In this document: in pieces, positions 19,224 to 27,124 of the stretch
How the letters are laid out: each line of letters starts with the position of its first letter
Numbering within the stretch: position 1 is the stretch's first letter
Origin: a phage
Direction: 5' to 3' (one strand)
DNA: 64,000 bases
Sequence record: PZ445439.1
Program-made: the position numbers and the translations under genes
The notes under the pieces: generated by a model
Told to the model about the DNA's origin: nothing
The model's database searches: none
What the model saw: the letters and a program-made list of their open reading frames with translations, nothing else

Positions 19224-20237
19224 TCATTTATAATAACTTCGATGGTTTTCGAGATACACCCTTTCAAGGAAGTCATCCCAGAAACTCATGTCTACTTTTT
19301 GCTGCATACCGTTCTTAGAAGCTTCAATGGATGCTGCTTCTACTCGATCGACCACATCTTCCAAAAACTCTTGAACCGTTTTAAACGGATGCTTACCCAA
19401 CTTCACGTCGAGAATAAATGGAGCATCTTTGAGTGGATAGACCAAGTCGCCAGTTTTGTAAATTTCCAACAGTTGAAGTCCACCACGACAAGCATGACTC
19501 AGGGCTTTCCAGTCAATGCCCTCATTCGCTTCAGCCTTACGAGCGCGTTCACCATATTCAGCATCTAATTTGTTCAGTGACTGCTTAAGCTCAATAAGAG
19601 AAAGCGTTGTCTGATATTTACGACCCAGCACAGTGTAGAACGTCTGTGGGCCTGTTTTCTCATGATTATGGAATACCCATTCACAGAATTCGTTTTCTGG
19701 AAGACGATGCTTAATATCTTCAACCTTGGTACGACGCTGCTTAATAGAACCATCTTCTTGATAGTCAACCCACTGATCAGGGATTTGATTAACTACTTTC
19801 AATACATCACGTAATGCAGCCAAACGAGAACCCTTAACGCCATATTTAGAAGCTTGCTTGCGGACATATCCTAAATAGGATTTCATGTTAGTCGTATAAA
19901 AACGAGAACGGTTGTCTTGAATAAACTTCCATACGTCAGGCAAATCAGATTTAACCACTAGTTCAGGTGGAGTGTGAAGCATATCTAATGCTACAGTTTC
20001 ACCATCTGCTGCTAATTTAAAGAAATACTTAAGACTATACAATTCGTGGTCAATATCATCTTTAGTGTTTTTAGATGATGTGTTGTTAGTGTTTTTACTC
20101 ATGTGCTCTTTAACGTTTCCAATAAGAATATCACGAGCAGGAGGAACAAAAATTTCTTTAAAATCTACATCAGATTCTGGGGTAGAAGTTCCATAAAGAT
20201 GACTACCAAAATAGCTTTTCATTACTGTTTTCATCAT
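19224..20237 (-). CDS. Pol-beta superfamily nucleotidyltransferase
   Basis: GS-x10-DVD motif (YFGSHLYGTSTPESDVDF) near N-terminus; 337 aa. Confidence 0.6.
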   Translation of the reverse strand: MMKTVMKSYFGSHLYGTSTPESDVDFKEIFVPPARDILIGNVKEHMSKNTNNTSSKNTKDDIDHELYSLKYFFKLAADGETVALDMLHTPPELVVKSDLPDVWKFIQDNRSRFYTTNMKSYLGYVRKQASKYGVKGSRLAALRDVLKVVNQIPDQWVDYQEDGSIKQRRTKVEDIKHRLPENEFCEWVFHNHEKTGPQTFYTVLGRKYQTTLSLIELKQSLNKLDAEYGERARKAEANEGIDWKALSHACRGGLQLLEIYKTGDLVYPLKDAPFILDVKLGKHPFKTVQEFLEDVVDRVEAASIEASKNGMQQKVDMSFWDDFLERVYLENHRSYYK

Positions 20238-20695
20238 TCAGCCTTATATTCAATAACAGGACACACTTTAGCTTTACGGGCTTTTAAAAATTCGATAATA
20301 AGAGATTTCTTAGGTTGAATAGGAGGTAAATCTTTATACGCTCTATTAATATTTTCTACGTGTAAAGCATAATCCTTTTTCCATTTATAATTTTTATATT
20401 TTTCACGCAAACGCGCAGGAATAACAAATGAACCGATAATAAGTAAAACAACCAAAAGAGCAAGTATAAATGCCGATGGAAGAAGAGTCCATAAACTACC
20501 GAAAATAAGCCAACGTTGTAGACTTTCTGCACAAATAATTGTTAGCCCTACGAGTATAGCACACCCAAAAATAAAAACAAAAAATGTAGGGATAGCAATA
20601 GACCAAAAGTATGCACATAGTGTCTTAGGCCGTTGCCATTCGTCGTTAAACAATTTGAACAATTTATAGTGCCAAGAGTTTTCATTAATAATCAT
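20234..20695 (-). CDS. membrane protein
   Basis: 153 aa; 3 hydrophobic segments. Confidence 0.45.
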   Translation of the reverse strand: MIINENSWHYKLFKLFNDEWQRPKTLCAYFWSIAIPTFFVFIFGCAILVGLTIICAESLQRWLIFGSLWTLLPSAFILALLVVLLIIGSFVIPARLREKYKNYKWKKDYALHVENINRAYKDLPPIQPKKSLIIEFLKARKAKVCPVIEYKAE

Positions 20696-23726: not shown

Positions 23727-24308
23727 CTAATCTAGCTTTTTAGTTAATTCGTTCCAATGTTTTCTACATAAAGATACGTAAATTTCATCACCAATACAAA
23801 TTTGATCGCCTTCTTTAACTGGGGTTCCATCTTCCATTAATCGAGCGGTCATAATAGCTTTTTTACCACAGTGACAAACCGCTTTAAGCTCAATAAGTTT
23901 ATCAGCAATCGCCAAAAGTTCTTTAGAACCTTCAAATAATTTTCCAGCGAAATCAGTTCTTAATCCATAAGCCATAACAGGAACATTATATGTATCAACA
24001 ATTCGGCTTAATTGGTGTACTTGTTCAGTTTTTAAAAACTGAGCTTCATCTACAAATACGCAATGAATATCTTTTTGTGCTTCAGCCCATTTATAGAACT
24101 CGAAAATATCCATATCATCTGTAATAATATTCGCTTCCTGTTTAATTCCAATGCGAGAAACAACTTCACAGACAGAATCGCGAGTATCAATAGCAGGTTT
24201 AAGAACTAATACACCCATTCCACGTTCTTTATAATTATGCGCAGCAGTCAAAAGAGAAGCAGATTTTCCAGCATTCATTGCTGCATAAGTAAAAATTAAA
24301 CTCGCCAT
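23727..24308 (-). CDS. tk: thymidine kinase
   Basis: 193 aa; P-loop NAGKSASLL; C-terminal Cys zinc motif CHCG...C..C. Confidence 0.9.
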   Translation of the reverse strand: MASLIFTYAAMNAGKSASLLTAAHNYKERGMGVLVLKPAIDTRDSVCEVVSRIGIKQEANIITDDMDIFEFYKWAEAQKDIHCVFVDEAQFLKTEQVHQLSRIVDTYNVPVMAYGLRTDFAGKLFEGSKELLAIADKLIELKAVCHCGKKAIMTARLMEDGTPVKEGDQICIGDEIYVSLCRKHWNELTKKLD

Positions 24309-24498: not shown

Positions 24499-24680
24499 AC
24501 GGAATTTACATAATCAATAAGTTCTTGCTCTTTATTATCGAATTCTTTAGAAAGTTCTTCGTATTCATTTGCGCTAAAAGGACCGCATTCATCACAAACT
24601 TTTTCTAATTCACTATTTTTATCCATAACTTCGTGAATAAGAGAAAACAGCCTGTCTTTCTGTTCTTTACTTAGGCTCAT
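24495..24680 (-). CDS. hypothetical small acidic protein
   Basis: 61 aa. Confidence 0.4.
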   Translation of the reverse strand: MSLSKEQKDRLFSLIHEVMDKNSELEKVCDECGPFSANEYEELSKEFDNKEQELIDYVNSV

Positions 24681-24850
24681 AATATATCGATTCCCAAAAG
24701 TTTTAAAATGACTCGCTTTTGATTCATAACTGCAACAATTGAATGACCATTTGGGTCTTTTTGACCTGATCCAATTATAAATCCTTTTTGAGCAGAAAGT
24801 TCAATTAAAATGTCGAGTTCACGTAATAATTGATATTTCAAATCATCATT
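24677..24850 (-). CDS. hypothetical small protein (below ORF-track cut-off)
   Basis: 58 codons MNDDLKYQLLRELDIL...; start overlaps upstream stop (ATGA) and stop overlaps downstream start (TTATGA). Confidence 0.4.
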   Translation of the reverse strand, partial: NDDLKYQLLRELDILIELSAQKGFIIGSGQKDPNGHSIVAVMNQKRVILKLLGIDIL

Positions 24851-25056
24851 CATTTCGGTTTTCCTTCTTTAACGAAATCTGGATAAGGATAAAATCCTGA
24901 ATAAAATCCTTCACCTTTATGATTCGTGCACCCTTTATTAGAACAATAGCACCAATAATCAAAATCACAAGCCATTTCATCATTACATAAAGCAAAGACA
25001 ACTGGCCATTTACACTTTTCACAATGGGCATTTTTGAGAATGCTAGTTTGGCTCAT
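24850..25056 (-). CDS. Cys-rich putative zinc-binding protein
   Basis: CEKC...C...C..C...C pattern; ATG at 25056 overlaps upstream stop. Confidence 0.4.
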   Translation of the reverse strand: MSQTSILKNAHCEKCKWPVVFALCNDEMACDFDYWCYCSNKGCTNHKGEGFYSGFYPYPDFVKEGKPK

Positions 25057-25265
25057 AACCATGTAACCTTTAAGCAATATTCTTCTACGTGTTGTTTACG
25101 ACCTTTCTTATCAATAAAAGTATATTCAACATATTCACCAATATACCACTTGTCTACATTATGTGGGCTTTTTATAGGACACTTGGTTACCCGAGTTTCT
25201 ATCCAACTCCGGATAATTGAAGCTTTGTTTTTAGGGTCAAACGGATGCGGGTAATGTGCTTTCAT
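25053..25265 (-). CDS. hypothetical protein
   Basis: 70 aa ORF coupled to macro-domain gene. Confidence 0.4.
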   Translation of the reverse strand: MKAHYPHPFDPKNKASIIRSWIETRVTKCPIKSPHNVDKWYIGEYVEYTFIDKKGRKQHVEEYCLKVTWL

Positions 25266-25716
25266 AATCCACCACTATTAAATCAATATCAGGAGTAAAC
25301 ATGTCGATTAATTTAGAAACCTTATCCCAATCACCGCCAGCAATACCACAACCTATACGTGGAATATAAATTACTGGTTTAAACAAAAGGGTTTCTGCCT
25401 GTAGATTTAATTCTATCATACAGTTTACTAAAGCACCATAATCAAGATTAGGACCTGGTTCGTATTGCGTATACAGGTTGTAACATATGCCAAAACCATT
25501 AGGTTTATGTTTAAAAACTATAGACATATCACCGAGTTTTTCACGCGAACCATATTCAGTTGTGGTCTTATCTATTTCTAAAATTTTGGGATAGGCTCTT
25601 GCTAATTGACCCGCTACACCTGAACCCATTGTGTGGAAGCAATTGCACCCGTGCGCAATAATATTACCTTCAAGAAAGAGGGCGACAATATCGCCCTTGA
25701 TATATTTTACAATCAT
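25237..25716 (-). CDS. macro-domain protein (ADP-ribose binding/processing fold)
   Basis: GDIV...HGCNC...GSGVAGQL N-terminal motifs and IPRIGCGIAGG C-terminal motif, matching macro-domain signature blocks. Confidence 0.6.
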   Translation of the reverse strand: MIVKYIKGDIVALFLEGNIIAHGCNCFHTMGSGVAGQLARAYPKILEIDKTTTEYGSREKLGDMSIVFKHKPNGFGICYNLYTQYEPGPNLDYGALVNCMIELNLQAETLLFKPVIYIPRIGCGIAGGDWDKVSKLIDMFTPDIDLIVVDYESTLPASV

Positions 25717-26060
25717 CTAGTACTCAATCCTCGATTATAAGAATCTACTAAACGGTCAACCATTGAACGACAAGCGGCTTTGTCTTTTTCCTCCGCAACT
25801 GAGCATTCTAAGGTATTCCACTTTTTAGCATATCGTTTTAATAATGTATCGTTTTTGTATCTACTTGTTTTATCTCTTTCTCCGTCTTTATATGCATATA
25901 TTAATTTCTGCGCAAACTCAGATTGACATGCTTTATTTTTCCCGCAATAATCTGCCGCAGTGCGGTTCACATACTCCCTAATTTCAGTATATGATGTATC
26001 TGCTGACGCGTAAGCAGAAAATGAAATTAATCCTATACATAAAACCAAAATTTTAGTCAT
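25713..26060 (-). CDS. secreted/periplasmic Cys-containing protein
   Basis: N-terminal signal peptide MTKILVLCIGLISFSAYA; 115 aa. Confidence 0.5.
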   Translation of the reverse strand: MTKILVLCIGLISFSAYASADTSYTEIREYVNRTAADYCGKNKACQSEFAQKLIYAYKDGERDKTSRYKNDTLLKRYAKKWNTLECSVAEEKDKAACRSMVDRLVDSYNRGLSTR

Positions 26061-26598
26061 TTACTATTTCCAAAAGTTTATTATTTTTAAGGTAATTAGC
26101 CTTTTCTAGGACTTCAGAAGCATATTTAGAACCTGCTTTAACATTCCATCCCGAATTATAAGAGGATATTGCTTTTCTTATATCGCCCTTATGTATATTT
26201 AACCAATAAGAAAGTTCAATGTACGCCCATGAAGCTGAATTGGATCGTTTATTCAACATTCTTTTTATTTCAGCATCGGTCATATTATAACCAAGTTCCT
26301 TAACTCTTGCTCGCATAGTAGGCAAATAATTTTGGAACATTCCATAAGCGTGATGCTTTGGTTTAGATTTTAAATTAACTCCGCCAGAGCTTTCTTGCCA
26401 TAAAATGGCTGCCATTATATGACCTAATCCACTCTTATGAACATTTTGGTGTGTTTTATATTTTCCATCCTTAGAAAACTGTTCCCCGAATTGATACGCG
26501 TAACGCATGTTATCGAGTTGGACATTACTGAAAGTATGCTCGGAGCTATGTGCCATCATTGAAATGGCCAATAGACCAGCGAGTAGTGCTTTTCTCAT
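26053..26598 (-). CDS. secreted lytic transglycosylase-like protein (SLT domain)
   Basis: signal peptide MRKALLAGLLAISMMAHS; SLT motifs WQESSG, YGMFQ, SYNSG. Confidence 0.6.
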   Translation of the reverse strand: MRKALLAGLLAISMMAHSSEHTFSNVQLDNMRYAYQFGEQFSKDGKYKTHQNVHKSGLGHIMAAILWQESSGGVNLKSKPKHHAYGMFQNYLPTMRARVKELGYNMTDAEIKRMLNKRSNSASWAYIELSYWLNIHKGDIRKAISSYNSGWNVKAGSKYASEVLEKANYLKNNKLLEIVND

Positions 26599-26605
26599 GT
26601 TTACC

Positions 26606-27067
26606 TCATTGAGTTTTAATTACTGCTTTAGAAGCCTTTCCTGGTAAACGACGACTGTTGATAATTGCCATCCTGCATTGAAGTGACGGGTCTTTGAACT
26701 TCTCATTAGGTTTACAAACCGTAAATCCAAGCCAAAGATTTCCATCAGTGATTTCTAAACGTCCAGGGCGATATTCAATTCCATCGATAAAATCTTCATC
26801 AATATCAGGACGCGGAGGCATACTCAGGAATTCATTAACTTCTAAAACATGGTCTTTTATTTTATGGAATAATTCAAAAACATATGTCTCATCAATCTCC
26901 CGTTGAATTGCACGATCAAGAAGATGCTGAGAATATTTTAGATGAAACGATGAGACCCCTGCTGCTTTTGATGCCTCACGAATCTCATTGTTAATTTGAC
27001 GAAACTCCGACTCAAAGTGACGACGAAGCTTATTTCGACGGATAAAAACTTCTGTGTTGATAGTCAT
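26606..27067 (-). CDS. regB: sequence-specific endoribonuclease RegB
   Basis: 153 aa; position between vs-region and tk as in T4; own strong early promoter. Confidence 0.7.
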   Translation of the reverse strand: MTINTEVFIRRNKLRRHFESEFRQINNEIREASKAAGVSSFHLKYSQHLLDRAIQREIDETYVFELFHKIKDHVLEVNEFLSMPPRPDIDEDFIDGIEYRPGRLEITDGNLWLGFTVCKPNEKFKDPSLQCRMAIINSRRLPGKASKAVIKTQ

Positions 27068-27094: not shown

Positions 27095-27124
27095 ATTATA
27101 CCACAGTTAAGAGGAAAAGTAAAC
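27095..27124 (-). promoter_or_regulatory. T4 early promoter with extended -10 (TGGTATAAT) and -35 GTTTAC
   Basis: minus strand GTTTACT-18 nt-TGGTATAAT then AAGAGGAG RBS of regB; -10 embedded in 9-bp inverted repeat CTCTTAACT/AGTTAAGAG. Confidence 0.6.

Follow-up and report, generated by a model that had tools for sequence, protein, structure and literature searches.

A diverged tk.4 (adfM) macrodomain gene of a T4-like phage and its probable role against DarTG2

Introduction

No ADP-ribose-processing domain is commoner in viruses than the macrodomain, which is found in about 41% of myoviruses (PMC9503650). In phage T4, when a transposon library was challenged with a host expressing DarTG2, tk.4 was the single significant hit, and a clean tk.4 knockout makes T4 sensitive to DarTG2; the gene was named adfM, for anti-DarT factor macrodomain (HIDEN-SEQ preprint, bioRxiv 10.1101/2025.11.20.689424). 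To the authors of that 2025 preprint, it "seems likely" that ADP-ribose is removed from DNA enzymatically (10.1101/2025.11.20.689424). A further anti-DarTG2 factor had been predicted, as T4 lacking adfA and adfN (gene 30.3, a NADAR enzyme acting against DarTG1) is still resistant to DarTG2 (PMC11825919). Here we analyze a gene of this kind, encoding a protein of 159 amino acids, and the 70-amino-acid gene that follows it, in a 64,000-nucleotide stretch of phage DNA (sequence record PZ445439.1; hereafter, the window).

Two other systems offer biochemical points of comparison. The chimallivirus PhiKZ encodes a protein, gp104, also called AdfM, which in vitro frees a TNTC oligonucleotide of the ADP-ribose attached by DarT2, and whose activity is reduced by the N23A mutation of its conserved Asn (PMC13309987). 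SCO6735 of Streptomyces coelicolor (PDB 5E3B) and Bt_1257 of Bacteroides thetaiotaomicron (PDB 2FG1/2AFC), which share 54% identity, form a Gln-type subclass of the ALC1-like macrodomains: in a structure-based alignment both have Gln (Gln85) where DarG has Lys80 and TARG1 has Lys84 (PMC9411070). SCO6735 strips thymidine-linked, not guanosine-linked, ADP-ribose from DNA, is quicker at this than either DarG or TARG1 and can rescue E. coli from DarT, and its activity on ADP-ribosyl-thymidine DNA is lost in the Q85A, N27S and G128E mutants (PMC9411070).

A macrodomain protein orthologous to T4 Tk.4

The window carries two adjacent open reading frames (ORFs) on its minus strand, both starting with ATG and both lying where the original prediction had placed them (Table 1). 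The upstream one, of 159 amino acids, is a macrodomain by both profile and fold. Its translation holds KGDIVALFLEGNIIAHGCNC (KGDIVAL...AHGCNC), MGSGVAGQL and IYIPRIGCGIAGGDW, so that all of the macrodomain motifs quoted originally are found in it, and it matches Pfam Macro (PF01661) at 34.4 bits, the gathering score being 22 (E=2.4e-8; residues 22-136 aligned to positions 2-117 of the 118-position model), and PHROG 335 with E=2e-71. Searched as a single sequence against solved macrodomains, the protein found Bt_1257 (1e-10), Poa1p (2e-9), Mycobacterium tuberculosis DarG (1e-5) and TARG1 (7e-3). A profile of 52 homologs found Bt_1257 at 4e-20, TARG1 at 1e-17, SCO6735 and Poa1p at 1e-15 and DarG at 3e-12.

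The profile search and structure prediction that the original prediction had proposed as checks thus both give a macrodomain. An AlphaFold2 model, built from an alignment of 51 sequences with the T4 sequence left out, reached a mean predicted local distance difference test (pLDDT) score of 93.5, with only tail residues 156-159 disordered (pLDDT below 50). The protein is predicted to adopt the three-layer alpha/beta/alpha macro fold, and a Foldseek search with the model returned TARG1, Poa1p, Bt_1257 and DarG at probability 1.00, with template modeling (TM) scores of 0.73-0.83. Some records label such proteins as an 'RNase III inhibitor' (YmdB-like); we rejected this label, as YmdB is of the MacroD type and stands far lower in the Foldseek list (rank 44).

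Sequence and gene position together identify the 159-residue protein as the ortholog of T4 tk.4 (adfM), in a T4-like phage of the Tequatrovirus type. It shares 58% identity with T4 Tk.4 (NP_049723) over 155 residues without gaps (E=5e-70), and both genes occupy the slot between vs and tk.3. The first 14 residues are identical, HGCNCFHTMGSGVAGQL, NLYTQ and the PRIG.GI..G.WD motif are common to the two, and their lengths are 159 and 155 amino acids, respectively. The glycine-rich loop reads GCGIAGGDW in the window protein and GAGIGKGNW in T4 Tk.4.

The ADP-ribose pocket and the catalytic position

Conservation across the 52 homologs, a diverse set of phage and bacterial proteins, concentrates in what would be the ADP-ribose pocket. 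Sixteen residues are invariant (H22, G23, N25, C26, G33, A35, L61, G62, N80, Y82, T83, Q84, P119, G122, G124 and W130), and G31 is conserved in at least 90%. The candidate first binding loop, H22-Q37, lines up with HxCN..G.G in Bt_1257, TARG1 and Poa1p; the Asn equivalent to its Asn25 is the one required for activity in SCO6735 (N27S; PMC9411070). Both conserved elements of a macrodomain pocket are thus recognizable in the alignment, namely Asn and G-x-G after strand 2 and a P-x-I-G-x-G loop. In the latter, G124 corresponds by alignment to TARG1 Gly123 and SCO6735 G128.

The catalytic position appears to differ from that of DarG and TARG1. The profile alignment places Q84 opposite TARG1 Lys84 and the Gln of 'NMIGQ' in Bt_1257, and A126 opposite TARG1 Asp125, so that the catalytic dyad K84/D125 of human TARG1/OARD1 (4J5S) would be Q84/A126 in the window protein. 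DarG catalytic Lys80 would likewise be replaced by Gln84, an equivalence that runs through the TARG1 and Bt_1257 alignments and the structure-based alignment of PMC9411070. The window protein therefore shows, as aligned, the Gln-for-Lys substitution of the SCO6735/Bt_1257 subclass (N25, Q84 and G124) without an Asp of the TARG1 type. Members of that subclass also have a mobile loop five residues longer than that of DarG and TARG1. This is lacking here: after Q84 the alignment has a 6-residue gap against Bt_1257 and none against TARG1. Because of this short loop, the window protein is, on present alignments, like the SCO6735/Bt_1257 subclass at the catalytic position but not a full member. Overall identity to Bt_1257 is only 27-29%, and the housekeeping or stress role of the cellular enzyme SCO6735 contrasts with the phage counter-defense proposed for the window gene.

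By its domain content, the protein is a free-standing macrodomain and not a DarG antitoxin. Its best family matches are the DarG models of NCBIfam and PADLOC, of which it covers the macro part alone: positions 2-142 of 338 in NF048014 (28.1 bits against a cut-off of 250) and 3-144 of 329 in the PADLOC model. The C-terminal DarT-binding domain is missing, as is the catalytic lysine in the alignment. There is no darT neighbor either, the flanking genes being vs and tk.3, and no DarT-like Pfam match was found among the flanking ORFs. The DarG structures compared were those of M. tuberculosis (5M3I), T. aquaticus (5M31/5M3E) and Thermosipho DarTG (7OMU). A tblastn search of plasmids for DarG returned SLOG-family and free-standing macro-domain genes only, none of them annotated as DarG.

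PhiKZ AdfM is likewise an orphan phage macrodomain acting against DarTG2, and the conserved Asn is common to both proteins (PMC13309987). In sequence it is very distant from the window protein (BLASTP E=0.001 over 31 residues; hhalign probability 96%). In a low-confidence local alignment, its 'FPTKDNW' puts a DarG-like Lys within one residue of the T-even 'LYTQ', the MAFFT and hhalign placements of 'PTK' against 'YTQ' being off by one or two residues. PhiKZ AdfM is imported into the phage nucleus, a structure that T4-like phages do not have. The T4 and PhiKZ proteins were independently named AdfM, and they look like separate acquisitions.

Proposed function and alternatives

We consider it likely that the window protein hydrolyzes DarT2-made ADP-ribosyl-thymidine on single-stranded phage DNA, and does so early. 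Reversal of DarT-type DNA ADP-ribosylation had been guessed originally for this protein, and the guess matches the genetics published for T4 tk.4 (10.1101/2025.11.20.689424). The original prediction had also named, as a possible refutation, a T4 gene already characterized with an unrelated function: the gene is indeed present and characterized in T4, with the same function as the one proposed here. The anti-DarT role of the T4 ortholog has thus been published before and is not new.

Our model is as follows. The tk.4 protein would be made from the tightly packed gene string regB-vs.1-vs-tk.4-tk.3-...-tk, and would bind the ADP-ribose that host DarT2 puts on thymidine in TNTC motifs of single-stranded phage DNA. 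Two loops, GSG and PRIGCGIAGG, would grip the diphosphate, while Gln84, which Asn25 presumably keeps in place, would orient the distal ribose at the site that DarG and TARG1 fill with their catalytic lysine. Cleavage of the ribose-thymine bond would free ADP-ribose and restore a replicable template, and after removal of the adduct the phage would grow on DarTG2 hosts. The model supposes that the window allele, 58% identical to that of T4, shares its substrate and role, that the protein acts catalytically rather than by binding, and that the gene is expressed early.

Several points weigh against this proposal. The tested allele is that of T4, and 42% of the residues in the window protein differ from it, most of them beyond residue 48. 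The evidence on T4 Tk.4 is genetic, and our literature searches found no biochemistry on that protein. The residue equivalences given above come from sequence and profile alignments. The phage proteins do not have the 5-6-residue longer 'mobile loop' with the DNA-contacting lysines of the SCO6735 subclass (PMC9411070), so the SCO6735 mechanism may not transfer exactly. In addition, SCO6735 made catalytically dead can still block DarT in vitro (PMC9411070), and the N-terminal half of the window protein resembles yeast Poa1p (6LFQ), an ADP-ribose-1''-phosphate phosphatase.

The dead-enzyme result invites the reading that protection is mainly non-catalytic, with DarT2 bound or blocked, or ADP-ribosylated sites shielded. 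Against DarT in vitro, inactive SCO6735 (Q85A) was a stronger inhibitor than the inactive forms of DarG and TARG1 (PMC9411070), and the window protein has no DarG catalytic Lys. We find this reading improbable: the residues of the SCO6735 hydrolysis set (Asn, Gln and the loop Gly) are invariant in the 52 homologs, which fits conservation of an enzyme better than toxin-specific binding, the DarT-binding domain that ends DarG is absent from the window protein, and PhiKZ AdfM works enzymatically (PMC13309987). The Poa1p resemblance points instead to hydrolysis of ADP-ribose-1''-phosphate (Appr-1''-p) or of another small-molecule ADP-ribose derivative, such as an RNA repair by-product or an immune signal. 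T4 RefSeq labels tk.4 'phosphatase; contains A1pp phosphatase motif', many phage records carry a 'phosphatase / A1pp' label, and such a reaction could be a side activity. That label, however, is motif-based and not experimental, and many macrodomains have weak Appr-1''-p phosphatase activity in vitro that is not their role. The sole reported phenotype of T4 tk.4 is the loss of DarTG2 resistance (10.1101/2025.11.20.689424). We find a main role as a phosphatase improbable as well.

It is likewise improbable that the protein serves chiefly to remove ADP-ribose from proteins or RNA, whether phage Alt/ModA/ModB marks, the products of host protein-directed ADP-ribosyltransferase defenses or ADP-ribosylated RNA. 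T-even phages do have ADP-ribosyltransferases of their own. Their Alt/Mod marks, however, are arginine-linked, and to our knowledge ALC1-like macrodomains do not cleave arginine-linked ADP-ribose. Glu/Asp-linked ADP-ribose on proteins is likewise a substrate of SCO6735 and TARG1, but in competition SCO6735 clearly prefers DNA over protein (PMC9411070). The mRNA ADP-ribosyltransferase system CmdTAC strongly restricts wild-type T4 even though that phage has tk.4 (PMC11618068), and Tk.4 therefore does not neutralize the RNA modification made by CmdTAC. The tuning of Alt/Mod modification and the degradation of ADP-ribose-derived signals, both raised in the original prediction, find no specific support for the window protein.

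A bolder version of the thymidine-ADP-ribose hydrolase reading can be drawn, which we think unlikely. It would make T-even Tk.4 a distinct third kind of thymidine-ADP-ribose DNA hydrolase, combining a Gln center of the SCO6735 type with the short loop of DarG and TARG1, unrelated in origin to the Lys-type AdfM of PhiKZ; the split into two alleles (see below), which circulate in T4-like genomes that differ little elsewhere, would then reflect selection for DarT variants or extra substrates and not neutral mosaicism.

If Tk.4 acts on DarT2 adducts as we propose, the phage would carry the macrodomain arm of the T-even anti-DarTG toolkit, which in T4 consists of AdfA and AdfN against DarTG1 and Tk.4/AdfM against DarTG2. 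Recognizing this arm helps to predict host range on E. coli bearing DarTG2. Two observations are modestly new, and both are comparative only: the Gln, not the DarG lysine, at the T-even catalytic position together with a short loop, and the existence of two very different tk.4 alleles that are both common among sequenced phages.

A diverged allele and its spread

Compared with T4 in 60-nucleotide windows, DNA identity is 90-100% across vs and the first 60 nucleotides of tk.4, about 77-80% over the next ~90 nucleotides of tk.4, and 42-63% in most windows from ~25600 to 25130, which takes in the rest of tk.4 and most of tk.3; from ~25130 it is back above 90%. With breakpoints internal to both genes, tk.4 and tk.3 seem to have been exchanged together as a cassette.

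Both alleles are well represented in the 50,697 phage records that we searched. For the window allele of Tk.4, 21 records have at least 99% identity and 318 have at least 90%, and the protein is 93% identical to that of phage JS98. The T4-type allele reaches at least 90% in 224 records and 80-90% in a further 159. Some Tk.4 homolog is present in about 2770 records, spread over many host genera. The best DNA match to the two-gene tk.4/tk.3 stretch is ~92%, and for the window Tk.3 no protein match above ~90% was found in the collection, in which the neighboring Tk.4 has its 21 near-identical matches. Judged by these two limits, the exact tk.4/tk.3 mosaic of the window is absent from the collection, and each of its pieces is ordinary.

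A Tk.4-like macrodomain of 42% identity also lies at 19856..20308 of the plasmid record CP057073.1 (E. coli, 137 kb). Because this match is far closer than the other plasmid matches, the record may represent a phage-plasmid, or else a phage genome that was misassigned.

The tk-regB region

Between tk and regB the window has eight ORFs and T4 six, as the original prediction had counted; the T4 RefSeq order is tk.1, tk.2, tk.3 (70 amino acids), tk.4 (155 amino acids), vs and vs.1. From this count it had been suggested that the macrodomain gene and its 70-amino-acid neighbor are an insertion absent from T4, an idea to which we give virtually no credence. T4 carries both genes, tk.4 and tk.3, at the same position between vs and tk.2, and the tk.4/tk.3 stretch (~25130..25600) is a diverged allele rather than added DNA. 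The comparison with T4 did uncover two extra genes, which are not the macrodomain pair: the single block missing from T4 in the DNA alignment of this stretch, 376 nucleotides long, falls between tk.3 and tk.2 and holds two other ORFs (Table 1). Phage vB_EcoM_G4507 is annotated with the eight-gene layout of the window as well. An identical 9-nucleotide sequence, TTATGAGCC, starts the block and the sequence directly after it, in both cases at a stop/start overlap, and T4 has one TTATGAG at the corresponding junction. This arrangement suggests that the block was gained or lost by recombination at microhomology between gene boundaries.

Table 1. Features of the tk-regB region of the window, with positions counted from its first nucleotide.
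Feature	Position	Strand	Basis or remark
tk.4/adfM ortholog: 159-aa single-domain macrodomain protein, ALC1-like class, Gln at predicted catalytic position	25237..25716	-	
Candidate first ADP-ribose-binding loop, H22-Q37 (HGCNCFHTMGSGVAGQ), with Asn25 (25642..25644) and G31-S-G33	25606..25653	-	
Gln84 codon (CAA), invariant N-x-Y-T-Q motif, aligned position of catalytic lysines K84 (TARG1) and K80 (DarG)	25465..25467	-	
Candidate phosphate-binding loop, P119-G128 (PRIGCGIAGG)	25333..25362	-	Aligned with TARG1 'PRIGCGLD' and Bt_1257 'PRIGCGLAGG'
tk.3 ortholog, 70 aa, DUF7202, immediately downstream of tk.4	25053..25265	-	Pfam PF23832, 79% to T4 Tk.3
Overlap of tk.4 3' end and tk.3 5' end, 29 nt, different frames	25237..25265	-	
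Block absent from T4 between tk.3 and tk.2, 376 nt	~24683..25058	-	Window-T4 alignment columns 1062-1437
ORF in extra block, 68 aa from ATG, Phage_zn_bind PF23895	24850..25056	-	
ORF in extra block, 58 aa, phrog_3452	24677..24853	-	
Thymidine kinase (tk)	23727..24308		Recognizable T4 gene
vs ortholog, 115 aa	25713..26060		Position, T4 layout
vs.1, 181 aa, SLT lytic transglycosylase domain	26053..26598		Pfam E=1.5e-5
regB	26606..27067		Pfam PF10715, 1e-68
Match to the sigma-70-like promoter consensus (TTTACT-17-TATAAT plus TG), just upstream of regB	27095..27123	-	Consensus scan

aa, amino acids; nt, nucleotides.

The tk-regB region is expressed early in T4, and early expression would be expected for the window tk.4. 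A candidate promoter precedes regB; it is a consensus match only, and promoter-like sites in the region are no more numerous than in shuffled sequences. Downstream of it, regB, vs.1, vs, tk.4, tk.3 and the genes as far as tk follow head to tail, with stops and starts overlapping or nearly abutting. The start of tk.4 shares an ATGA with the stop of the preceding vs ORF. At the other end of the gene, the tk.4/tk.3 overlap is 29 nucleotides in the window and a 4-nucleotide ATGA in T4. The DNA alignment has a 13-nucleotide gap against T4 at the 3' end of tk.4, which would account for both the 29-nucleotide overlap and the low-confidence tail ESTLPASV. With the macrodomain gene upstream and the two frames overlapping in this way, a hand-over of ribosomes from tk.4 to tk.3 is plausible.

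Codons 7-13 of tk.4 contain an 8-bp GC-rich hairpin (AGGGCGAT-ATT-GTCGCCCT; 25679..25697, minus strand) followed by a T-rich stretch, and the homologous region matched in phage DalCa carries a 'terminator' annotation. We rejected it as a terminator: the stem is real, but its local fold is no better than that of shuffled sequences (z -1.4), and the same bases encode the conserved KGDIVAL.

For the vs ortholog no significant Pfam family was found (best E = 0.078, below threshold). In T4, vs was the gene most depleted in minimal medium (HIDEN-SEQ preprint, bioRxiv 10.1101/2025.11.20.689424). The N-terminus of vs.1 is a hydrophobic stretch, putatively signal-like.

The neighboring tk.3 gene

The 70-amino-acid protein is 79% identical to T4 Tk.3 and matches DUF7202 (PF23832) with E=8.6e-37. 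Its occurrence led us to reject an obligate partnership of Tk.3 with the macrodomain. Tk.3 is by far the rarer of the two, with 837 phage records against about 2770 for a Tk.4 homolog, and in Yersinia phage vB_YenM_TG1 the pair is adjacent but in swapped order. In that phage (Tegunavirus; 1067..2172), the DUF7202 gene lies upstream of the macrodomain gene, and an unrelated 144-amino-acid ORF sits between vs and the DUF7202 gene. Phage VivaForever has DUF7202 with no recognizable macrodomain gene within the 1.5-kb flanks examined. Tk.3 and the macrodomain are linked within Tevenvirinae, with no evidence of functional dependence.

Four residues, Cys29, His35, His59 and Cys64, are identical between the window and T4 Tk.3 proteins, and this Cys/His set might form a small metal site.

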